Source of the DNA: a phage
DNA length: 64,000 nt
Sequence record: OM867527.1
Reading direction: 5' to 3' (one strand)
This document shows, one piece after another, positions 3,977-52,707 of the stretch. The notes under the pieces are model-generated. The model was not told the DNA's origin. It ran no database searches and saw only the letters and a list, made by a program, of their open reading frames with translations. A program made the position numbers and the translations under genes. Position 1 is the stretch's first letter, and each line of letters starts with the position of its first letter.

Positions 3977-5923
3977 ATGAGTCAGATAACATGGCGTAAT
4001 GTTGATGCACCTAACTTCTCCGGAGTTGGTGACAGCATTCGCACATTTGGCAACATGATTGGTAACGCCACCTCCGGCTTAAGTGATGCACTGGGTAATT
4101 TCCAGAACGCTGCCAAGCAGGAGGCTGGCAATGCCGTCATGATGAATGCTATGCAGTATCAAGACCCTACTGAATACCGTAATGCTCTGGCATCCGGTGC
4201 ACTGTTTCAGGGGGTTGACCCTTCATTGGTAAGTCAGCGTACTCTTCAGAATCTGGATGAGCGAGCAGGTACTCTTCTGACTCAGCAAGGTCAGCAAGGA
4301 ACCAATGACTATAATGCTTATAACTTTGGTCGCTTAAAGGATGTTAACTCTGCATTGGATAATGCTTCTCCAGCTATTCGATTGCTGTCTGAGGCTTATC
4401 AGTCAGGCGACCAGAATCGTATTAATGCTGCATTAGGTCAAACCCGTGAGGCATTATCTACACTTCCTGCTGACCAACAGTTAGATTTGCTAGGACGTCT
4501 ACAAGGACAGGGTGGTGCAGCTATTAATCAGGCAACTAATCGCTTTGACCTTAACGTGCGTCAACGTAATGATGCTGATTCACAAGCTGCATCCGGTGTA
4601 CTGACGGATATTTTCCGTAGTGCTTCTACGCCTATGGATGCTCTTACACTGGCAGAGTCTGCTATGCAGAATGCTTCCCCAGGTGTACGTGCTGCAATCA
4701 TGCGAGGTGTTAACGAGAGATTCCCGGGTACTTACGCTACGTCTTCTTCTGGCTCTGCTCCTGGAACTGCTGGTACTCGTTCTGGTTCTCCTTATGATGC
4801 AACTTATACCTTTGCTGCTACTGATAAGCCTATTACTGAGATGACACTGGGAGAGGTTACTAATCATCAGCAAACTATGATTAATAACCCGTCACAAGGT
4901 CATTCTCCTGTGGGTGCATTCCAGATTAATAAAGCTACTCTGGAAGACTATGCTCCTAAAGTACTTGGCTCAGATTGGCGTAATCAGCAAATGACTCCTG
5001 AAGTACAGGATAAAATTGCTGAAGCAATCTTTAATGACCGTAAGAGTGGTAACCTTTCTAAGACCTGGGCTGCATTACCTGACTTGGGTGTGGGTGGTTA
5101 TAAGGATATGCCTTGGAGTGAAGCACGTCAGTTAATTGCACAGGCAGAAGTAGGTGCACCTCTTGATCAGCTACAGACCCAGCAAGTAGTCTCAAACATG
5201 GCAGGCAATACAGTTGCTGCACGTCAGTCTGAAGATAACACTGGAACTATTACTGCTAACTATGCTCGTGCATTACGTGATAACTCTACCATTGGTGAAG
5301 TAGCAGACCGTCTTCTTAAGGATGCTTTCAAAGGTTCTGAGAAAGGATGGATGATTGCTCGGCTTAATGATGTTATGCAGGAATCCGGGCAGTCTCCTGC
5401 TGTAGCTGCCGAGATTCTTAAGCAATCTACTACCAACGTACCAGAGGGTATGATTAGTCGAGCACTCGATGCACTTAACCCATTCATCTCCAATGAGGGT
5501 GGTGGTGGTATTCGTATTGACGATACCGTTGCCAGAGAACTAGCACGTTCAGTACGACGTGGGGAAGGTATTGAAGCTACTGCTCGTGATAATGTTCTTA
5601 CTCAGGTACAGGGTAATATTGCTAACGCTCAGAACCAGGTAAACCAAGCAGAAGCCTTGCTTGCTGATACCCGTCGTCGTGTAGCTGCTGGGCAAAGTGG
5701 ACTTGCTGCTACTATACCTGCTCGTGAGGCTGAGTTAGTAAGAGCACGTGCTGCACTAGATGCTGCTGTTAATACTGTAGTAGCTAATCAAGGTAACCTG
5801 GTTCCACAGAACTTCCGTTCTAATGCTTCAGTAGAGCGTGAGCGTAGTCGTGAAGATGAAGAACGAGCTAAACGTTATCGAAAATTAGCAGAGGGTTTAC
5901 CTCCCTATATGCAACCTCGATAA
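3977..5923 (+). CDS. Virion/internal protein (648 aa), possible lytic-transglycosylase-like segment
   Basis: RBS aggaaa then ATG 3977. Central segment (TEMTLGEV...SPVGAFQINKATLEDYA) loosely resembles the catalytic Glu and GLMQ-type motif region of lysozyme-like transglycosylases; this is motif-level inference only. Confidence 0.4.
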   Translation: MSQITWRNVDAPNFSGVGDSIRTFGNMIGNATSGLSDALGNFQNAAKQEAGNAVMMNAMQYQDPTEYRNALASGALFQGVDPSLVSQRTLQNLDERAGTLLTQQGQQGTNDYNAYNFGRLKDVNSALDNASPAIRLLSEAYQSGDQNRINAALGQTREALSTLPADQQLDLLGRLQGQGGAAINQATNRFDLNVRQRNDADSQAASGVLTDIFRSASTPMDALTLAESAMQNASPGVRAAIMRGVNERFPGTYATSSSGSAPGTAGTRSGSPYDATYTFAATDKPITEMTLGEVTNHQQTMINNPSQGHSPVGAFQINKATLEDYAPKVLGSDWRNQQMTPEVQDKIAEAIFNDRKSGNLSKTWAALPDLGVGGYKDMPWSEARQLIAQAEVGAPLDQLQTQQVVSNMAGNTVAARQSEDNTGTITANYARALRDNSTIGEVADRLLKDAFKGSEKGWMIARLNDVMQESGQSPAVAAEILKQSTTNVPEGMISRALDALNPFISNEGGGGIRIDDTVARELARSVRRGEGIEATARDNVLTQVQGNIANAQNQVNQAEALLADTRRRVAAGQSGLAATIPAREAELVRARAALDAAVNTVVANQGNLVPQNFRSNASVERERSREDEERAKRYRKLAEGLPPYMQPR

Positions 5924-43961: not shown

Positions 43962-45179
43962 TTAACTTAATGCATAGTCTGTTTCAAGAATGTCCTGCCA
44001 GAGGCTGTCATCCAGCTTACCAGCAGAGAACTCTTGCCCCAGTACCTGAGACAGAATGAAGCCCAGCAGGTCACTCTTAGCAATGTCAGACAGAATCTGA
44101 TTGTACTGACGACGTAAGTCGTTACCGTAGTTAGGATGGCAACGGAAGCAGTCATGTACAGTCATTACAGGGAATGGCTTCTTAGGCAAAGTATTGAGCA
44201 TAGTTAAGATTACATCTGTATCTACCAATGCAATGGTTTCTGAATCCAGGTAATCAAAGATACGGGTAGACAGGAATCCAGACTTCTTATAACTAGTCCA
44301 TAATGTATTAACCATTTCATGGCTAGCACCTGGGACAACTATGTATTCACTGGTTCCCTCACAGAGGGACTTAATATAGTTCACCTGGTTCATGTTGAAG
44401 TTACAACGACGCAGCATCTCACGTACCACCATTCCATCAATAGAGTGAGTGATGTTAGCAGAGAGCATACGGGTCTTTTCTTCAGTACCCTGAACCATAC
44501 GAGTGATGTCGAATGGCTTACCTAAGAAGTTAACAGTCTGTACCTCTGGAACCATGACCTTAATGACAGCATGGAAGTTGTCAGGCAGTACCCATATGTA
44601 ACGGTTGGCATCAGGGTTACCACATTGCAGTAAGAACTTGTTGAGTGCCCAAGGACCACTAGCAACAGTTTCCATTACATTCTCAAAAGTCTTGAGACGA
44701 ATACCTTCACCGAATACCTCTTTAGGCTTGGCTTCTGAGCCGTAGAATGCAGTCATAACAGCCTGCTTAGTGTCACTACGTTTAATACGTGATGCTTCAC
44801 CAAGGATGTCCAGCATCTTATGATAGATGACTGTATAAGCATCACGGCGTAATGGTTTACCATTCTCACCCATGTAATTAACTACGTTACACAGTTCAGC
44901 AGCAGAACGGTCACCGGTCAGACAGGCCAGTAACTGCAAGCCTGATGATGTAGCATCCAGAGCTACGGCATAGCCAATAGGCTTACCTGCTTTCATATCT
45001 TTCCATGCGTTTACACCAGCAAAGAACAGAGCAGAATCTTCAGCTTCATCTACCAGATTAAGCAGGTTAGCTTCGTTCTCATCGAACCAGGCAATACGTT
45101 CATCCCATGTCTTCTTATCTAAGCCATAGTTATTAGCAATATCTACTTTCAGGTATTCTTTAGCGGTTAACAGTTGCAT
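43962..45179 (-). CDS. Phage RNA polymerase II, large (catalytic C-terminal) subunit, T7-like
   Basis: Motif B RSDTKQAVMTAFYGS (RxxxKxxxxxxxYG), motif C TVHDCF, and C-terminus ILETDYALS comparable to the T7 RNAP C-terminus. Size (405 aa) matches the N4 RNAP II large subunit. Confidence 0.8.
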   Translation of the reverse strand: MQLLTAKEYLKVDIANNYGLDKKTWDERIAWFDENEANLLNLVDEAEDSALFFAGVNAWKDMKAGKPIGYAVALDATSSGLQLLACLTGDRSAAELCNVVNYMGENGKPLRRDAYTVIYHKMLDILGEASRIKRSDTKQAVMTAFYGSEAKPKEVFGEGIRLKTFENVMETVASGPWALNKFLLQCGNPDANRYIWVLPDNFHAVIKVMVPEVQTVNFLGKPFDITRMVQGTEEKTRMLSANITHSIDGMVVREMLRRCNFNMNQVNYIKSLCEGTSEYIVVPGASHEMVNTLWTSYKKSGFLSTRIFDYLDSETIALVDTDVILTMLNTLPKKPFPVMTVHDCFRCHPNYGNDLRRQYNQILSDIAKSDLLGFILSQVLGQEFSAGKLDDSLWQDILETDYALS

Positions 45180-45236
45180 TTTATGTTCCTTTTGCTTCTT
45201 GGCTCCCCACTATGAAGAGCCTGCTTATTGGGATTA

Positions 45237-45851
45237 TTACTTCCAGGCCCACTTAAAGCCTTTGTATGTTTTGGGGTTATAAATATGACCTCTGCCATCC
45301 TTCACAGGGATACCATTGGCTACCGTTATAATACCCCACGTTCTACCACTTACATGGCGTGCAGCATCTGCTGTAGTAACAAATTCTTTATAGAATGTAC
45401 CGTCTAGGTGATAGGCGATAACAGGTTGTGCAGTGGCAATGTTACCTTCTTTCTTGCTACGTGCTCCTTTATCCCTATTCTCTTTCCAGGACATTAGTTG
45501 AATGTTATCCAGAGTATATGGTTTTTGGTCATCTATACGGTCTACAGATGGTTTATAGTCTTTTGCATAGTCACTCGCTACATAATCATCCCATAGTTGA
45601 TGAATATTTGGTTGTTTATCCAACCATTCATAGAAATCTTCTAGTGAATAGTTGGGTGGTGGGTGTCCTCTTTTAATAGAGTGAGATAGTTGAGTTAGAT
45701 AAGTCTTCCTGAACATACATACCGGGTCGGCTTTGTTATACCTCAAAGTCCGACATTTACGGCACCGTACCTCATAACCGTCTTTGCAGGTTGATTTTGG
45801 TACGAACTCTGTGAGGTCTTTTGTTTCCCCACAGTCCTTGCAGATTTTCAT
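45237..45851 (-). CDS. HNH homing endonuclease with N-terminal zinc finger and C-terminal NUMOD-like DNA-binding region
   Basis: CKDCG...CRKCR zinc ribbon; HNH-type core SVDRIDDQKPYTLDNIQLMSWKENRDKG; C-terminal helix AARHVSGRTWGII. ATG overlaps the stop of the upstream RNAP II small-subunit gene. Confidence 0.65.
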   Translation of the reverse strand: MKICKDCGETKDLTEFVPKSTCKDGYEVRCRKCRTLRYNKADPVCMFRKTYLTQLSHSIKRGHPPPNYSLEDFYEWLDKQPNIHQLWDDYVASDYAKDYKPSVDRIDDQKPYTLDNIQLMSWKENRDKGARSKKEGNIATAQPVIAYHLDGTFYKEFVTTADAARHVSGRTWGIITVANGIPVKDGRGHIYNPKTYKGFKWAWK

Positions 45852-46666
45852 TAGTCCTCCACGAGTTCTTTATGTGCGAACTCTATTACTGCCTTATTCC
45901 ATGAAGTACCCGCATAATTAATATGGTAACCACAGGCATATGTACGCCCACGTTTGTCATATTTGTGAGCCAGAGAGAAATTATTACCTTCTTTGGTCAC
46001 TAACTCCATTACTTCCTTAGCTGTACGACTGTATTTCTCAAAGGCTTTGACTCGTTTCTCATATTCCTGACGGGTTTCACCTTCTTTTGGTTTATCCATG
46101 TTAGGACGAGAGTCTTTTACGTAGTTAGCAACGTCCCAGTTAATGCAGAGACGTTGATTGTTCATACGGTTGATGTGGTCAAGACAGACATCCATCTCAT
46201 GATGGTTCTTCTTGAGGATGATGCTACCCCTGCTTTCGTAGTAACCAGTATCACGGTTACATTTAACAGGCTTAGGAGCACTTACGATAGGCAATGGATA
46301 CTGGAATGCTTCTAGTTCCATCTGTACATCTTCACTAATCTCATAGATAACACCGAACTTGTCGATGGTAGGGTCATAGTTGAAGCAGTCATTCTCTGCC
46401 ATCTTATACAGACAGTCAGCGATGTACTGAGCATCATCTGAGTGACTCATAAGAGAGCCAATCATAGTCTGAATGTCAGCACGTTTATGTAGGGCAATCT
46501 GCACCATTGCATCAATGAGCAGCTTATAATCAATTTCCAAATAGGCAGCGAATGCCTTAAAGTCAATTTCTTCGGAGTCCTCGAATTCCTTCCTCATGCG
46601 AGGGAGTAATTGATTCTTGTTGAAAAGGATTTCAAGTCGCTTCTGATGTTCAATAGATGAGTACAT
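45851..46666 (-). CDS. Phage RNA polymerase II, small (N-terminal-like) subunit, T7-like
   Basis: KYDKRGRTYACGYHINYAGTSWNKA resembles the T7 RNAP segment DWRGRVYAV...NPQGNDMTKG. Size (271 aa) and position match the N4 RNAP II small subunit. Confidence 0.7.
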   Translation of the reverse strand: MYSSIEHQKRLEILFNKNQLLPRMRKEFEDSEEIDFKAFAAYLEIDYKLLIDAMVQIALHKRADIQTMIGSLMSHSDDAQYIADCLYKMAENDCFNYDPTIDKFGVIYEISEDVQMELEAFQYPLPIVSAPKPVKCNRDTGYYESRGSIILKKNHHEMDVCLDHINRMNNQRLCINWDVANYVKDSRPNMDKPKEGETRQEYEKRVKAFEKYSRTAKEVMELVTKEGNNFSLAHKYDKRGRTYACGYHINYAGTSWNKAVIEFAHKELVED

Positions 46667-46686
46667 CGCATATTCTCCTAATTAAT

Positions 46687-46920
46687 TTAAACAATACTTG
46701 CTATTAGAGTCCTAGTTTTATGTTCACTAGCACATCGGTAATACATTCTTATGTAGTTTCCATGGAAGTTATGTCTCCATGCCCACGGGAAGGGTAGTTC
46801 TACTTCACACCAGTTATTAGGGCTTTCATATGCCCCTTTAACTGCTTCTTTAATCTTTGGATAATTACCCCATTTATGTTTATGTTTCTTAGCTATGATT
46901 TGCTGAATTGATACCGACAT
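46687..46920 (-). CDS. Hypothetical early protein (77 aa)
   Basis: Short reverse ORF in a tightly packed early array. Confidence 0.35.
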   Translation of the reverse strand: MSVSIQQIIAKKHKHKWGNYPKIKEAVKGAYESPNNWCEVELPFPWAWRHNFHGNYIRMYYRCASEHKTRTLIASIV

Positions 46921-46947
46921 TGCATATCCTTAAGCTGCGGAGCAGCT

Positions 46948-47298
46948 TTAACTCCAGTAGTTGTAAGCATCACCTAAGTATTTACGCCATGCTTCTGGTA
47001 ACAGCACGTTGCCAGTGACATTAATGAACAGGTATGGGTCCATAAAATCCATTCTCATTACTTTGAAATCCCATTGCGGATTAATAGATGCATAAGCAAT
47101 AAAACCCTCAATGAAGCCATAAATAGCACCTTCTTTGATCCGGTCACCACTACCATCTCTTACCGGAATGGCGAAGCTATTACCATAATGACCATAGGCC
47201 ATTCCCCATCGAGCACCATGCTTCTTATAAGCTAATTTGGCAGCAGCATTAGTATGCTGCCCTAGTGTATTGGTAGTGAATACTAAGATTTCTTTCAC
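46948..47298 (-). CDS. Hypothetical early protein (116 aa), Rossmann-like N-terminus
   Basis: N-terminal beta-strand/Gly pattern (EILVFTTNTLGQHTNAAAK...GNSFAIPV). No firm family assignment. Confidence 0.4.
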   Translation of the reverse strand: MKEILVFTTNTLGQHTNAAAKLAYKKHGARWGMAYGHYGNSFAIPVRDGSGDRIKEGAIYGFIEGFIAYASINPQWDFKVMRMDFMDPYLFINVTGNVLLPEAWRKYLGDAYNYWS

Positions 47299-47492
47299 AT
47301 TAATCCCCTTACTTCTTTATAGAATTTAATAGCATCTTCCTGAGTTTCAGGCTTAACTTCATAAACACAGTCAAGAGCTTGTTCATGGTCACGTTGCTCC
47401 TTCTTTGTTCGGCAATGACCACATTTACCATCCCATTGGGATACATGGCCTTTACCACATTTACATTGCTTATCCATTTGGATTCTCCACAA
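47295..47492 (-). CDS. Small zinc-ribbon protein (65 aa)
   Basis: CxC...CxxC pattern (CKCGKGH...CGHC). Confidence 0.4.
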   Translation of the reverse strand: MWRIQMDKQCKCGKGHVSQWDGKCGHCRTKKEQRDHEQALDCVYEVKPETQEDAIKFYKEVRGLM

Positions 47493-47850
47493 AGTAGTTA
47501 TACATAGCCTTTACTAGCTTCTCTTTAATAACCTCACCATGACATGGTTTTGGATAACAGAAGCACTGTAAGGCTAATCCTTTCTCGTCAATGGCTTTAT
47601 TACCAAGACGATTTAATTCATCCAGTACAACTGGATTCTTCCTCATAATTTGTTCATTAAGCCATACTCGATATTTGGCTATAACCTGTTCTCTTGAACC
47701 GTCTTTACCAATGACAAATGGATTGCCTAATGGTGAACCACGTCCAATATATTCACCGGATTTACCGTGATGTTTATTAACAATAATGATTGGACGTGCA
47801 GATACACCTAGTAAAGCATTGGTGTCGTCACCTAATGACATAATCTTCAT
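47470..47850 (-). CDS. Hypothetical early protein with GNPF motif (DUF4326-like by recollection)
   Basis: GRGSPLGNPF and downstream CFCYPKPCHG. Family assignment is tentative and needs an HMM check. Confidence 0.35.
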   Translation of the reverse strand: MKIMSLGDDTNALLGVSARPIIIVNKHHGKSGEYIGRGSPLGNPFVIGKDGSREQVIAKYRVWLNEQIMRKNPVVLDELNRLGNKAIDEKGLALQCFCYPKPCHGEVIKEKLVKAMYNYFVENPNG

Positions 47851-48161
47851 GGCTTAAGTACCTGGAATGGGAACACAGGACGTTTACTACTCCACTGGTT
47901 CATAGCTAATTCACTAGTTTCAGAACCATCATGTAAGTCGTAGATAAATGAAATTACATAGTCTGGTTCTTCCGGGAAGTTTTCTGTAGAGAAGGGTAGA
48001 CCTGATTCCTTAAGAATAGGGACTAGAGGAGAATCAGCATTACAATAGAGGGTAAACTCTTCATTGAATGCTTGGCTTGTCTGAGATACATAATCAATAT
48101 TACGCATCATCTTATCTACATCAGTAAATGTAGAATCATGTACTACTAGAATAGTTTTCAT
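47847..48161 (-). CDS. Hypothetical early protein (104 aa)
   Basis: N-terminus MKTILVVHDSTFTD parallels the neighbouring 118-aa protein (MKLIVAGGRDFTD), suggesting a shared fold. Confidence 0.4.
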   Translation of the reverse strand: MKTILVVHDSTFTDVDKMMRNIDYVSQTSQAFNEEFTLYCNADSPLVPILKESGLPFSTENFPEEPDYVISFIYDLHDGSETSELAMNQWSSKRPVFPFQVLKP

Positions 48162-48349
48162 ACTGGCTCCTTGCCTGTAAATGCTACTACTTTTCCTGAC
48201 ATATTTCGTATGGTTACCTGTGCTGAGTTAACATCAGCAAATTGCTCTGCAACCCAATTAAGCATCTCAGGTTCATTATTTAATTGTTTGTTAATCACCG
48301 TTTTACTATCTGCTGTTACTAAAGTGATTTCATAATTTTCAATATTCAT
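48158..48349 (-). CDS. Hypothetical early protein (63 aa)
   Basis: Start overlaps the upstream stop. Confidence 0.35.
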   Translation of the reverse strand: MNIENYEITLVTADSKTVINKQLNNEPEMLNWVAEQFADVNSAQVTIRNMSGKVVAFTGKEPV

Positions 48350-48603
48350 GATACTTTCTCCAAAGTTAAGTAAGTCTTATTATCTTCAGGCACATAATTA
48401 CAAATACCAATCTCTTCCTGCCTTCCTTTAGATACCCAAGTACCTTCAGCAGTTAGTTTGGGCTTTCTTGCAAAACCCATAAGAGAAGAGTTATTACTAG
48501 TATATGTACGTGGTAACAGGGCAACATATTTAACCCATAAAGGTATTGCAATTGTTTGCCCCATGTAATTGAACGGTCTACAGGTAGGGTATGTAATAAT
48601 CAT
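48346..48603 (-). CDS. Hypothetical early protein (85 aa)
   Basis: Start overlaps the upstream stop. Confidence 0.35.
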   Translation of the reverse strand: MIITYPTCRPFNYMGQTIAIPLWVKYVALLPRTYTSNNSSLMGFARKPKLTAEGTWVSKGRQEEIGICNYVPEDNKTYLTLEKVS

Positions 48604-48960
48604 TTAGTACCTCACAATATATACAGGTTTATTTAGCCTCTGCATGATATCAATCATGTGCTTGGTTCCTTTGGATTTACCATCCCAGAAACATACAGCA
48701 GCATCTGCAAATTCCCCCATTTCTTTATTCCTACGGAATCCAGCAGACTTGCCATAGGTATCCCATTCAGCAGGGAAGAAATGTATTTGCATATTCGCAG
48801 ATTTCCATAGATAGAAAGCTCTTATATCTGCACCACGAGCCATACCACATACTAATTCTGGGCATTCAGGTATACTTCCTGAATTTACTAACTTCTGTAG
48901 TTCCTCAACCATACGATTGGTATCAGTGAAGTCACGTCCACCAGCTACAATTAGTTTCAT
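48604..48960 (-). CDS. SLOG/DUF2493-like Rossmann-fold protein (putative nucleotide-binding)
   Basis: KLIVAGGRDFTD...VCGMARGADIRAF...AAVCFWDGKSKGTKHMI resembles the DprA/LOG-like small Rossmann domains found in phages. Recollection-based. Confidence 0.4.
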   Translation of the reverse strand: MKLIVAGGRDFTDTNRMVEELQKLVNSGSIPECPELVCGMARGADIRAFYLWKSANMQIHFFPAEWDTYGKSAGFRRNKEMGEFADAAVCFWDGKSKGTKHMIDIMQRLNKPVYIVRY

Positions 48961-49178
48961 TTCTGATAACCCTCTATGAAGTTAGTACGACGAATAAGCT
49001 GAGTAGATGCCTTAACGGCTGTCTTCTTGAACTCATCTTTGTGTTGGTTTTCCAATATCTTATCCCATTCTTTCTGGTTCCGTTGTTTCTGTAGAATACG
49101 ACTACACTTCTTATGATTAGCAACTCCTTTACGTTTGCTACATACAGGGCAAACACCATAATCAGTTGAGTACATCAT
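48957..49178 (-). CDS. Small zinc-ribbon protein (73 aa)
   Basis: CPVCSKRKG...HKKCS. Confidence 0.4.
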   Translation of the reverse strand: MMYSTDYGVCPVCSKRKGVANHKKCSRILQKQRNQKEWDKILENQHKDEFKKTAVKASTQLIRRTNFIEGYQK

Positions 49179-49483
49179 TGGCTTAAAGCCTCCAGTAATA
49201 TTTTACGAATAACATTTACGTCAGATTCAGTACCAATTAAGCCAACAGGCTTACCTGTACTATCCATTACAAAGGATGCAATCCTTTCCATCTCTGCTGT
49301 AATTAACTTGTCACCACTAATAAGACGATTACGAAGGTAAGCTTCATAAGCTACCTCTACATCTTCTACCGTGGTTCTTTCATTACGAGTGAATGGATTG
49401 CTTAATGGGAATGGTAGGTGGATACGTATATTCCGGTCAGCTATCTTAGCTGAATGTGGAAGTATACAAACAATTTCATTCAA
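49175..49483 (-). CDS. Hypothetical early protein with NPF motif
   Basis: HLPFPLSNPFTRNERT; shares the NPF motif with the 126-aa protein at 47470..47850. Confidence 0.35.
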   Translation of the reverse strand: MNEIVCILPHSAKIADRNIRIHLPFPLSNPFTRNERTTVEDVEVAYEAYLRNRLISGDKLITAEMERIASFVMDSTGKPVGLIGTESDVNVIRKILLEALSQ

Positions 49484-49525
49484 GGTTATTTCTCCTATTT
49501 AAATACATATCTAACTATTCAAGAA

Positions 49526-49558
49526 TAAAAAATAGAAGCCCTCCTAATGGAGGACTCC
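49526..49558 (-). terminator. Terminator-like hairpin (minus strand)
   Basis: Imperfect stem (GTCCTCC / GGAGGGC) followed on the minus strand by a T-rich run. Confidence 0.35.
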
Positions 49559-49565
49559 TTACAGT

Positions 49566-49778
49566 TTAGGAATATAGTTTGAATAGTTTTACTCCTAGCT
49601 CCATTACAAACCAAATTGTATAACCAATAGTTACACCACTGAGTAATGAACTGAAGTAACCCAATACAACAGCAGCAATATAATTGTTACTGCTTTTAAG
49701 TGCATGCAGTGCTTCTTTACCATTACGCTTCTGCCAACCGTTCATGATTAGCAGGGTTACTAAGATGATAATTTCCAT
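49566..49778 (-). CDS. Small membrane protein (70 aa)
   Basis: Two TM helices (IIILVTLLIMNGW and AAVVLGYFSSLLSGVTIGYTIWFV). Confidence 0.35.
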   Translation of the reverse strand: MEIIILVTLLIMNGWQKRNGKEALHALKSSNNYIAAVVLGYFSSLLSGVTIGYTIWFVMELGVKLFKLYS

Positions 49779-49896
49779 TAGTTGTTTCCTAGGATTGGAT
49801 GATTGAAGGTTACGATACGACGTACTGATTCAGATGTCTGTTTCTTAGTAGCCAGACGTTCTTTCATCTTTTGCACGTCAGCTTTAGTTCCCATGA

Positions 49897-50079
49897 TTAA
49901 TGATTTACGCATGATTTAGTACTCCACATAAAGTTAAAAGGTTTATTGTTACGTACAATTCTTACAACCATTTGATAGCCATTGAGTTGCACAACACCAT
50001 AGTGTCGTTTCTGTACACCAATGTGATACCTACGAAAGATACACTCTTCAATGGCATCTTCTATGTTAGTGAATATCAC
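49897..50079 (-). CDS. Hypothetical small protein (60 aa)
   Basis: Short ORF; start overlaps the upstream gene's stop. Confidence 0.25.
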   Translation of the reverse strand: MIFTNIEDAIEECIFRRYHIGVQKRHYGVVQLNGYQMVVRIVRNNKPFNFMWSTKSCVNH

Positions 50080-50294
50080 TGGTTCCTCTTAGCAAACTTT
50101 TCAGCTTCATTAGCCCAGAGTTGCTTACGAACTTCTTTGGCTACAATGGAAGCAAACAGACACTTAACGAATACAACTGGTAACTTGCAGATAAGTACCA
50201 GCTTAGTAATTACCCACTTGGCTCCATTGAGGATGTAACCACGTAGGCGATACAGCACATAGCAGAGTATTACAAACGCAATGAAGTCCAACAT
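50076..50294 (-). CDS. Small membrane protein (72 aa)
   Basis: N-terminal TM (MLDFIAFVILCYVLY) and a second hydrophobic segment. Confidence 0.35.
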   Translation of the reverse strand: MLDFIAFVILCYVLYRLRGYILNGAKWVITKLVLICKLPVVFVKCLFASIVAKEVRKQLWANEAEKFAKRNQ

Positions 50295-50298
50295 AGTC

Positions 50299-50484
50299 TT
50301 ACGCCTTATGAAGTTTACGGATTTGTTTACGAGTAGGTTTAGCTACAAAGAAGTGGTCATAGCAGTGACCATTTTCATCTTTTACGGATACCTGCCAACG
50401 AGCATTCAGTGTCATCTTACTGCCCCAAGGTTGCAACATAACAATCATCTTCTGTGAGTTATAACGGTTACATAATGTACGCAT
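50299..50484 (-). CDS. Hypothetical small protein (61 aa)
   Basis: Short ORF. Confidence 0.3.
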   Translation of the reverse strand: MRTLCNRYNSQKMIVMLQPWGSKMTLNARWQVSVKDENGHCYDHFFVAKPTRKQIRKLHKA

Positions 50485-50590
50485 AATGGTTACTCCTTCA
50501 TCTAATATAAATCTATATCTATCTGGTTACTGTTTCAGTACCCTTCGTCTAAAGATACTCAAAAAGTAGAAATAGCTTATCGTCTAGTTA

Positions 50591-50618
50591 AAAATAAAAG
50601 ACTCCCCGAAGGGAGTCT
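50591..50618 (-). terminator. Rho-independent terminator (minus strand), UUCG tetraloop
   Basis: Minus-strand reading: AGACTCCC-TTCG-GGGAGTCT followed by TTTTATTTTT. Confidence 0.6.
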
Positions 50619-50627
50619 ATTGATTGA

Positions 50628-51008
50628 TTAGAAAGTCAGTTTACGAGCATATTTATTCTCGTCTGCTGGGATGTCAGCAGCCTCTGCTTTCACACGACGA
50701 AGTTGAACTTGCAGGTTAATGATACCTTCCTCACCTGGTTCCAGGTTCTGAGCATATGCAATTAACTGTTCAAGCAAGTCATTCTGTGCACAACGCATAG
50801 CACGGAAGTCAGCATTGCTGCTATTAGTAGGCAGCGGTTCCTGAGTATCCAGTGGAATACCAGTAGGCAGAGAGATGAATTTCTCATCATCAGAGCCTTC
50901 GTTAGCTACATAACCAATGTTCAGCCAGAACTGAGCTTTAGGCTTATCAGTTTTAGCAGTGGTAGCAGCAGCGTTAAATTGACCGAAAGTGAATTTTTGA
51001 ATAGACAT
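50628..51008 (-). CDS. Hypothetical mildly acidic early protein (about 126 aa)
   Basis: ATG 51008 has a GGAG RBS (track start 51107 is upstream of it). No recognisable motif. Confidence 0.45.
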
Positions 51009-51194
51009 TTTGTACTCTCCAGATAAATGATTGTTTGATTTATGGGTTTGTCCGTCGGTGACTAAACCCAAGAAAAGACTTAGGATTTCGATAAGAAGTG
51101 GATTCATTCTTATCCTTTAGACGCGGAGCGTCTTGGTTTTTAGAAGTAGAAGTAAAGTAGATAGTTATCTACTTTTGACTATCTATCTAATGTT

Positions 51195-51222
51195 CAAAAC
51201 AGGAGACTCCGAAGAGTCTCCT
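51195..51222 (-). terminator. Rho-independent terminator (minus strand), UUCG tetraloop
   Basis: Minus-strand reading: perfect 9-bp stem AGGAGACTC-TTCG-GAGTCTCCT followed by GTTTTG. Confidence 0.6.
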
Positions 51223-51229
51223 AAGTGGC

Positions 51230-51553
51230 TTAGTCTTTAGTCAGGATGTCAATTACTTTGGAATATTCTGCGTTATAGATACGAGCGTTCTCTGAATCCT
51301 TGCAGAATTCCTCAATACTTTTCTTACGCAGAGTCTCAGTCATAGCTGTTTCCTCTGCCAGTTTATTAACAAAGGTATGCATTTCTAATTTAGTACGAAT
51401 GGCTTGTTTCTCTGCCATAGTACTTACATATGAATTAAGCATACCTACTGCTTTAGTTGCTGTACTGAATGTATCTGCAACAGTAGTAGCAGCTGAGTTA
51501 ACAGTACCAAGTAAAGTTCCTGCGGTCATACGTACAGTAGCTTGAGTAGTCAT
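51230..51553 (-). CDS. Hypothetical early protein (107 aa)
   Basis: Reverse ORF; helical-looking. Confidence 0.4.
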   Translation of the reverse strand: MTTQATVRMTAGTLLGTVNSAATTVADTFSTATKAVGMLNSYVSTMAEKQAIRTKLEMHTFVNKLAEETAMTETLRKKSIEEFCKDSENARIYNAEYSKVIDILTKD

Positions 51554-51637
51554 GATGATAGCTCCAATAGTTGATGATAGGACGACATGTCCATAACATG
51601 CGGAGCATGTGTAACGTGTAAGGTGGGGTAGGGTAGT

Positions 51638-51688
51638 GGCTACACCGTCAACATACCGGGGGGGCTAGTTGAGTGTAAGGGTGTAGCC
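51638..51688. repeat. Inverted repeat GGCTACACC ... GGTGTAGCC, 9 bp arms, 33-nt spacer
   Basis: Arms at 51638..51646 and 51680..51688 inside a 550-bp ORF-free gap; the spacer contains a G7 run. Confidence 0.45.
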
Positions 51689-51787
51689 CCAGCCACACCA
51701 CTATAGCCATGCATAACTATCACAATTTTGACATGCAAAAATATTATAGGCACTGTCTCTATAAGCAGATAACTTTGAGGTACTAAC

Positions 51788-51913
51788 ATGAAAGATGGAT
51801 GGGGTAACTACAATCCTACAGACCCTGAGAACTGGTTGCACTTTATTGCCTGTGCTTGTGCTGTAGGATTCATAGGTATTGTACTCTTGTCACTGGTTCT
51901 ACCTTATTTATAA
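51788..51913 (+). CDS. Candidate small hydrophobic peptide (41 aa) on the opposite strand
   Basis: ATG 51788 with upstream GAGG; encodes MKDGWGNYNPTDPENWLHFIACACAVGFIGIVLLSLVLPYL, which ends in one TM helix. Below the ORF-track length cutoff. Confidence 0.3.
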   Translation: MKDGWGNYNPTDPENWLHFIACACAVGFIGIVLLSLVLPYL

Positions 51914-52102
51914 ATACTATGGGGGATATCTATCTATCCCCTATTCATCGTAGCGTTTGATACTTAAAACCTCATATAGCCTACCATTTACAAGCAATGG
52001 TCCACCTACTTCTATGAAAGCTAGGCTGTGTACTATCACTGGTTCAGAGGAATAATGCAGTAAGTTAGTACCTTTCATTCCTAATAGTTTAACGTTCATG
52101 CT

Positions 52103-52387
52103 TCAGTACCTTTCCTTATAGATTGGGGTGTTGTTCTCGAAGGATAGGATGTACTTGTCTGTATTGAGATGCCAAGGGCTAAAGCTACCCTGCCAGGACA
52201 TTGGTGTACCTGGTTCAAGTAGATGTACTACCGAATTCTTATTGTATAGGAAGAGTAATCCTTGTATCTCATGTAGGGACTGTTCATCTGGAACCAGGAT
52301 AAGTACATCAGCATTCAGGTCAGCTATTTCTTTATGGAGGATGTAATTTTCCCCATTAGGCTCTGGATAAATTTTACTGATAACCAT
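52103..52387 (-). CDS. Member of a tandem paralogous early-protein family (94 aa)
   Basis: Shares the motif block LILVPDEQSLHEIQGLLFLYN...LLEP with the neighbouring ORFs. Confidence 0.45.
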   Translation of the reverse strand: MVISKIYPEPNGENYILHKEIADLNADVLILVPDEQSLHEIQGLLFLYNKNSVVHLLEPGTPMSWQGSFSPWHLNTDKYILSFENNTPIYKERY

Positions 52388-52707
52388 TAGAGACTCTTGC
52401 CGCTAGATAAATATGAGGTAGAAGGGTAGAGGGTAATAAGCCTGCCAGTTAAGGTAGTTACTACCATAGGTTCATTTTCAGAGAGTATGTACACGGAGGT
52501 GTGTTCCGGTATTTCCACGGAATCTACTATCTTAATGAATTGGATAGGTTGCCCTAACATTAAGCAAGTACCTATGAACACATCTGCTTCTTCACTTGGC
52601 TCATACAAGATGGCAGTAACTCTACCCTTACCTGCCAGAATATTATCCAATGTGTATGGGGATAAATAGCAAGTAGTGGCAAAGCTAATCAGGCAATACA
52701 GGTGCAT
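52387..52707 (-). CDS. Divergent member of the tandem paralogous early-protein family (106 aa)
   Basis: Weaker match (AILYEPSEEADVFIGTCLMLG...IVDSVEIPE) in the same position of the protein. Confidence 0.35.
   Translation of the reverse strand: MHLYCLISFATTCYLSPYTLDNILAGKGRVTAILYEPSEEADVFIGTCLMLGQPIQFIKIVDSVEIPEHTSVYILSENEPMVVTTLTGRLITLYPSTSYLSSGKSL

Follow-up and report, generated by a model that had tools for sequence, protein, structure and literature searches.

What function can be attributed to a run of small, closely packed genes in the early region of an N4-like bacteriophage? This question is raised by positions 46,687 to 49,483 of sequence record OM867527.1, from which a stretch of 64,000 nucleotides (nt) was analyzed (the window; coordinates refer to it unless another genome is named). 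The window corresponds at 100% identity to Escherichia phage HK2 (GenBank PP514361.1), an N4-like member of the genus Gamaleyavirus (Enquatrovirinae, Schitoviridae), and other G7C-type phages are 85-92% identical to it in this region. A preliminary description, made from the letters alone, had proposed an early-gene island of ten coupled small open reading frames (ORFs), some of them encoding SLOG-like, NPF-motif and zinc-ribbon proteins. All ten ORFs were confirmed on the minus strand, and the same ten coding sequences are present in the GenBank record of HK2, where nearly all are labelled as hypothetical proteins.

SLOG, Macro, NADAR and DUF4326 domains co-occur or are fused in DNA viruses, often in early regions, and they have been predicted to act, early in infection, on ADP-ribose derivatives that host immunity produces (PMC9503650, PMC7824862). 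Five of the nine coupled proteins of HK2 belong to this set of NAD+/ADP-ribose-processing folds: a YAcAr SLOG protein, a putatively SLOG-like homolog of N4 gp11, a DUF4326 protein (gp12), a DUF4326 paralog (gp9) and a macro protein (gp14). Two experimental precedents come from other phages. The DarG2-like macro domain AdfM, encoded by chimalliviruses, takes the ADP-ribose attached by DarT2 off DNA (PMC13309987). Phage DruSM1 deprived of ORF83, a Rossmann protein annotated as Smf/DprA, is sensitised to AVAST type III; ORF83 was later modelled as LOG-like, and its viral homologs include fusions to DUF4326 (10.1101/2024.04.14.589459; 10.1101/2025.06.06.658234). Because five proteins fall into the SLOG/Macro/DUF4326 set predicted in phages, and because of these two precedents, counter-defence against NAD+/ADP-ribose-based immunity appears to be the most likely role of this early accessory operon, with a chance that we judge to be about even.

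According to this proposal, the proteins would be made within minutes of DNA entry and would bind or break down ADP-ribose-derived molecules of host immunity, whether these are its signals or the adducts that ADP-ribose forms on nucleic acids. Catalysis in HK2, if any, would come from the SLOG and DUF4326 proteins, while the degenerate macro and gp9-like proteins would act as binders or regulators.

Domain content of the coupled genes

The 118-amino-acid (aa) protein (48604..48960, minus strand, as are all ten genes) matches the Pfam family PF10686, YAcAr (formerly DUF2493), across the full 66-position model with 30.1 bits (cut-off 28.2), as well as phrog_289 (1.5e-29). Its motifs GGRD, GMARGAD, RN and GxSxGTxH do not vary among 25 close homologs (residues G7 G8 R9 D10; G39 M40 A41 G43 A44 D45; R77 N78; G94 S96 G98 T99 H101). 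In total 4829 homologs were retrieved, with PF10686 present in 120 of 120 among the matches listed; 808 phage records from many hosts contain a match, frequently labelled DprA-like or GTP-binding. The SLOG/DUF2493-like nature suspected earlier for this protein is borne out by a profile score above the gathering cut-off and by the invariant motifs, and on these grounds it is classified as a bona fide stand-alone SLOG protein. It has no counterpart in N4 or ECBP1.

Both proteins for which a common NPF motif had been noted can be assigned to DUF4326. The 126-aa protein (47470..47850), a homolog of N4 gp12, scores 81.1 bits against the Pfam profile (PF14216; cut-off 25) and carries the motifs GRGSPLGNPF and CFCYPKPCH, which are invariant among relatives. 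The family has been placed, as a prediction, in the rhodanese-phosphatase superfamily (PMC9503650, PMC7824862); sequence searches of the PDB returned no solved relative of the protein. The 102-aa protein (49175..49483), a homolog of N4 gp9, begins with a TTG codon located 8 nt downstream of an AGGAG ribosome-binding site, and this start is backed by the Shine-Dalgarno sequence and by the N-termini of homologs. Its score against DUF4326 is 16.8 bits, below the cut-off, with only profile positions 9-59 of 82 matched. It is placed in the same PHROG as the 126-aa protein (phrog_464, E = 1e-16), and BLASTP aligns the two with E = 2e-7. The NPF motif is that of DUF4326, in the form PLGNPF in the 126-aa and PLSNPF in the 102-aa protein. 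In the alignment, the C-terminal CxCx4CH motif is missing from the latter, with KPVGLIG in its place in HK2 and N4 gp9 alike. These features identify the 102-aa protein as a diverged, degenerate DUF4326 paralog, which is probably non-catalytic.

DUF4326 matches occur in 758 phage records, many of them labelled 'NrdA-like', and they often lie beside, or are themselves labelled as, ribonucleotide-reductase-associated ORFs; elsewhere the domain is fused to replication and restriction-modification components (PMC7824862). Such contexts would suit a block serving the phage's own nucleotide or nucleic-acid metabolism, be it salvage, DNA modification, RNA repair or the handling of single-stranded DNA at the onset of replication. 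The DprA-like annotation often given to YAcAr proteins and the hydrolysis of AMP-type nucleotides by LOG-clade SLOG enzymes (PMC9503650) point the same way. We nevertheless find this explanation rather unlikely: the block is situated in the early host-takeover region and not among replication genes, the SLOG gene is dispensable (N4 and ECBP1 do without it), and two of the five domains are degenerate, a condition that binding or conflict roles fit better than housekeeping catalysis.

The 104-aa and 116-aa proteins had both been described as beginning with Rossmann-like strands similar to those of the SLOG protein. A Rossmannoid fold is predicted for the former, whereas the latter has to be reassigned. 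The 116-aa protein (46948..47298), a homolog of N4 gp14, starts with GTG, which is backed by a Shine-Dalgarno sequence and by homolog N-termini; its fold is that of a degenerate TARG1/DarG-like macro domain and not that of a SLOG protein. When all 56 members of the gp14 family were scanned with Pfam, no Macro match was obtained at E <= 1, and weak matches to 5-FTHF cyclo-ligase were set aside as chance. The family profile found no macro chain in the PDB, and NCBIfam returned only an uninformative family name for gp14. The lysine equivalent to the catalytic K84 of TARG1 and K80 of DarG, together with the GCGL(D/G) phosphate-binding loop, is kept in 47 of these 56 proteins, N4 gp14 among them. 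In HK2 gp14, IPTK is replaced by IPVR (the Lys is lost), the Gly loop is lost, and the RIGCGLAG loop has been removed by an 8-residue deletion. Because the Lys and the GCGLAG loop are lost, this copy cannot act as a DarG-type hydrolase.

The 104-aa protein (47847..48161), a homolog of N4 gp11, represents an orphan family with a predicted Rossmannoid beta-alpha fold, for which the closest folds are those of SLOG proteins. It has no Pfam match and no SLOG sequence motifs, and the loop after strand 1 is H8-D9 instead of the GGxD type. An hhalign comparison of the gp11 family with the YAcAr alignment gave a probability of 0.3%, i.e. no sequence link, and an exhaustive profile search for gp11 relatives recovered only some eight real clusters and led to no known family.

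The N4 early protein gp8 acts against the clamp loader. The proteins of HK2 might similarly be host-takeover factors that bind and inhibit host proteins, with nucleotide-binding folds as mere scaffolds. This would agree with the disappearance of catalytic motifs from the macro-like and gp9-like proteins, with the narrow, phage-specific gp11 family and with the early-region position; the early genes of phages are in general devoted to taking over the host (PMC4496689). The family motifs of the SLOG and DUF4326 proteins are, however, unchanged across relatives, which argues for a ligand or catalytic function, and we consider the scaffold explanation unlikely.

Counter-defence may also be envisaged in a more elaborate form. 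The gp14-like macro protein, the Cys-less gp9-like DUF4326 protein and gp11 would be pseudo-enzymes, composing a multi-part early anti-immunity module of N4-like phages with the intact SLOG and DUF4326 proteins. They could serve as sponges or decoys for ADP-ribose-derived signals, or as stoichiometric inhibitors of host ADP-ribosyltransferase toxins, and the gp14 of Gamaleyavirus would have switched from a DarG-like hydrolase to a binder. This specific scheme seems decidedly unlikely.

Early promoters and the limits of the operon

The virion RNA polymerase (vRNAP) promoters P1-P3 of N4 lie in the genome's leftmost 10% and contain a GC-rich heptamer centred at -11 with flanking inverted repeats, the template bases of the promoter being -8G, -9C, -10G, -11G and -12A (PMC4496689). 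A scan for GC-(TCC/TTC)-GC hairpins revealed exactly three on the coding strand of N4, upstream of gp1 (88-104), gp2 (557-573) and gp15 (4546-4562). Three were also found in the window, all on the coding (minus) strand and at intergenic sites equivalent to those of N4: promoter-type hairpins 5′ of the gp1-like (51595-51611) and gp2-like (51118-51134) genes, and one at 46932-46948. This last hairpin, AAGCTGC-TCC-GCAGCTT (7-bp stem, 3-nt loop), is identical to the one preceding gp15 in N4. Five other Gamaleyaviruses have exactly three such hairpins each, and after every one of them a conserved GG stands at the predicted +1. By itself, the heptamer shows no enrichment in the window (4 observed vs 2.1 expected), so the promoter calls rest on stem, position and conservation combined. 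With regard to these features, the three hairpins fit the published description of P1-P3.

The locus represents the early region at the left end of an N4-like genome, which runs along the minus strand of the window. Homologs of N4 gp2 and gp1 are located 5′ of the block, and the genes for RNAPII subunits (gp15-like, 45851-46666; gp16-like, 43962-45179) follow 3′ on the same strand. The coupled genes are found between P2 and P3, hairpin promoters of the injected vRNAP, and occupy the place that gp9-gp14 have in N4. The earlier designation as an early-gene island is correct.

Nine genes (46948-49483) are joined through six ATGA/GTGA 4-nt overlaps, one TAAATG junction without a gap and one 8-nt overlap. 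These overlapping or abutting start-stop junctions indicate that the nine are translationally coupled. The tenth ORF, encoding a 77-aa protein (46687..46920), exists as described but is set off from the block by 27 nt containing the P3 hairpin, and was rejected as a member for this reason. Since the hairpin precedes it, this gene heads the next transcription unit, in which the RNAPII gp15-like gene comes next. A close homolog of the 77-aa protein was found in only one of the relatives compared, phage 24-32N. The accessory ORF beside P3 varies between phages: St11Ph5 and ECBP1 possess an 86-aa gene upstream of the hairpin (2217-2498 in relatives), while the 77-aa gene of HK2 and 24-32N is downstream of it (window 46687-46948).

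Other features of the region were recorded as well. Terminator-like hairpins occur just upstream of the block (49534..49559, minus strand; 11 pairs followed by a T-run) and after the gp2-like gene (50599-50618). Between these two terminator-like hairpins there are five more small coupled ORFs (49566-50484, minus strand; 44-72 aa), of which at least two resemble membrane proteins by eye. Within positions 45000-52500, matches to sigma-70-like promoters are depleted (6 found vs 22.5 +/- 4.1 expected) and terminator-like hairpins are enriched (13 found vs 5.0 expected). A 204-aa ORF for an HNH/AP2-type endonuclease (45237-45851, minus strand) separates the genes of the two RNAPII subunits; since relatives have either a short ORF or another HNH gene there, it has the look of a mobile homing-endonuclease insertion.

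Conservation among N4-like phages

Genes gp9-gp14 of N4 (NC_008720, 2805-4528) have the same order and orientation as their homologs in HK2, ahead of the P3 hairpin and the RNAPII genes. Comparison by tblastn showed identities to N4 of 74% for the 102-aa protein (gp9), 81% for the 104-aa protein (gp11), 89% for the 126-aa protein (gp12), 61% for the 65-aa protein (gp13) and 46% for the 116-aa protein (gp14). No N4 counterpart was detected by this search for the 73-, 118-, 85-, 63- and 77-aa genes. Thus HK2 differs from N4 in that gp10 is replaced by four genes (encoding the 73-aa, 118-aa SLOG, 85-aa and 63-aa proteins), gp14 is degenerate, and the 77-aa gene is added after P3.

Gene presence or absence and sequence identity were then compared in six Gamaleyaviruses. 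Homologs of gp9, gp11, gp12 and gp14 are found in all six, mostly at 89-98% identity, with the gp14 homolog of Klebsiella phage vB_Kpl_K57alpha1.2 as an outlier (50%). The 73- and 85-aa genes are likewise present in 6 of 6. The SLOG gene is the most divergent (67-92% identity, compared with 90-98% for the conserved genes as found in Gamaleyavirus) and is not present in ECBP1, and the 63-aa, gp13-like and 77-aa genes are sporadic. Judging from this distribution, the four genes conserved with N4 constitute a scaffold and the remainder are exchangeable cassettes, i.e. the block is a variable accessory part of the early region in a G7C-type N4-like phage.

A link between gain of the SLOG gene and degeneration of the macro protein was rejected, as ECBP1 has a degenerate macro protein without the SLOG gene. 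Phage K57alpha1.2 has the SLOG gene together with a divergent gp14 of N4 length (123 residues). In the record of this phage (OY979416.1, 3500-5500) the homologous block shows tRNA annotations on top of protein-coding ORFs, and, unlike in other Gamaleyaviruses, it adjoins vRNAP and replication genes; this odd layout is probably an annotation or assembly artefact.

The independent gain and loss of cassettes, and the fact that SLOG and DUF4326 are each very common in phages (808 and 758 records, respectively), would also be expected of a mosaic of unrelated accessory genes with no joint function, in which SLOG, DUF4326 and macro proteins have met by coincidence. We regard such a mosaic as very improbable, given that the order of gp9, gp11, gp12 and gp14 is kept in N4 and the six Gamaleyavirus relatives and that fusions of these domains in single polypeptides have been reported elsewhere (PMC9503650; 10.1101/2025.06.06.658234).

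The remaining members of the block are small proteins. The 73-aa protein (48957..49178; phrog_6887), corresponding to gp9.1 of G7C-type phages and without an equivalent in N4, combines a CxxCx8HxxC pattern with a basic tail. A protein of 60-65 aa (47295..47492; the start in GenBank is the ATG at 47477), homologous to N4 gp13, carries CxCx12CxxC. Both patterns are invariant in all relatives examined, and each protein has four conserved putative zinc ligands with the right spacing, in line with the two putative zinc ribbons of the preliminary description. The C-terminal half of the HK2 gp13-like protein (47295-47400, minus strand) is unlike that of all compared relatives, while its Cys-rich N-terminal half is conserved, suggesting local replacement or recombination. 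The 85-aa protein (48346..48603) corresponds to gp9.2 (phrog_1972). The 63-aa accessory protein (48158..48349; phrog_24669) was found only in HK2, ECBP1 and K57alpha1.2 among the phages compared; its ORF shows weak PHROG similarity, over 30 residues, to Dmd of T4, which is an antitoxin to RnlA/LsoA (E = 3e-4).

Proposed counter-defence role and comparison with known systems

Several observations weigh against counter-defence as the role of the block. The residues that ADP-ribose hydrolysis requires are absent from HK2 gp14, as are, probably, those required for binding. We infer early expression of the block from its position, yet a terminator-like hairpin precedes it, and early expression would therefore need read-through or an unmapped promoter. 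DUF4326 genes also occur beside nucleotide-metabolism genes. Models of the PADLOC collection (e.g. DarG, ShosA, ThsA) gave no meaningful match to N4 gp14 or to the nine window proteins scanned (all ten except the 77-aa one). Searches of the PDB with single sequences and profiles returned nothing usable for the 116-, 126-, 118- and 104-aa proteins, and no experimental data on N4 gp9-gp14 were found in the literature. Finally, the comparison of the 118-aa protein with DruSM1 ORF83 extends to two traits: both are small stand-alone SLOG-type phage proteins, and the active-site pattern reported for ORF83, R-N ... T-x-D/S, has the same spacing as R77-N78 ... T99-x-H101.

The phage, its genes, the protein families and the predicted connection among the latter were already public. 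It is added here that N4 gp14 can be assigned to the TARG1/DarG-like macro domains and that gp14 has degenerated in Gamaleyavirus, that gp11 has a predicted SLOG-like fold, that gp9 and gp12 are paralogs, and that the block lies between P2 and P3. N4-like phages serve as a classic model of transcription and are candidates for therapy, and members of the gp9-gp14 group are now assigned to the SLOG, DUF4326 and macro families, with a distinction between copies that retain their catalytic motifs and copies that do not. The outcome is a short list of genes for assay against defences built on NAD+/ADP-ribose, such as Thoeris, DarTG, SIR2 systems and AVAST. Moreover, N4 gp14, with intact motifs, and the degenerate HK2 gp14 offer a natural comparison for a possible DarG-like anti-defence enzyme.

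Among known macro domains, AdfM, TARG1 and DarG are the closest points of reference for HK2 gp14, which departs from them in having Arg for Lys, in lacking the GCGLAG loop and in giving no Pfam Macro match. The block as a whole can be set beside the viral SLOG/Macro/NADAR/DUF4326 sets published by Iyer, Burroughs, Aravind and co-workers (PMC9503650, PMC7824862), whose role is itself a prediction. In HK2 there is no NADAR or Nudix protein, the domains are carried by separate small proteins and are not fused, and the macro protein and one DUF4326 copy no longer have their motifs. What HK2 has in common with these sets is a stand-alone SLOG protein of the YpsA clade (YAcAr), accompanied by DUF4326 and macro-type proteins in the early region.

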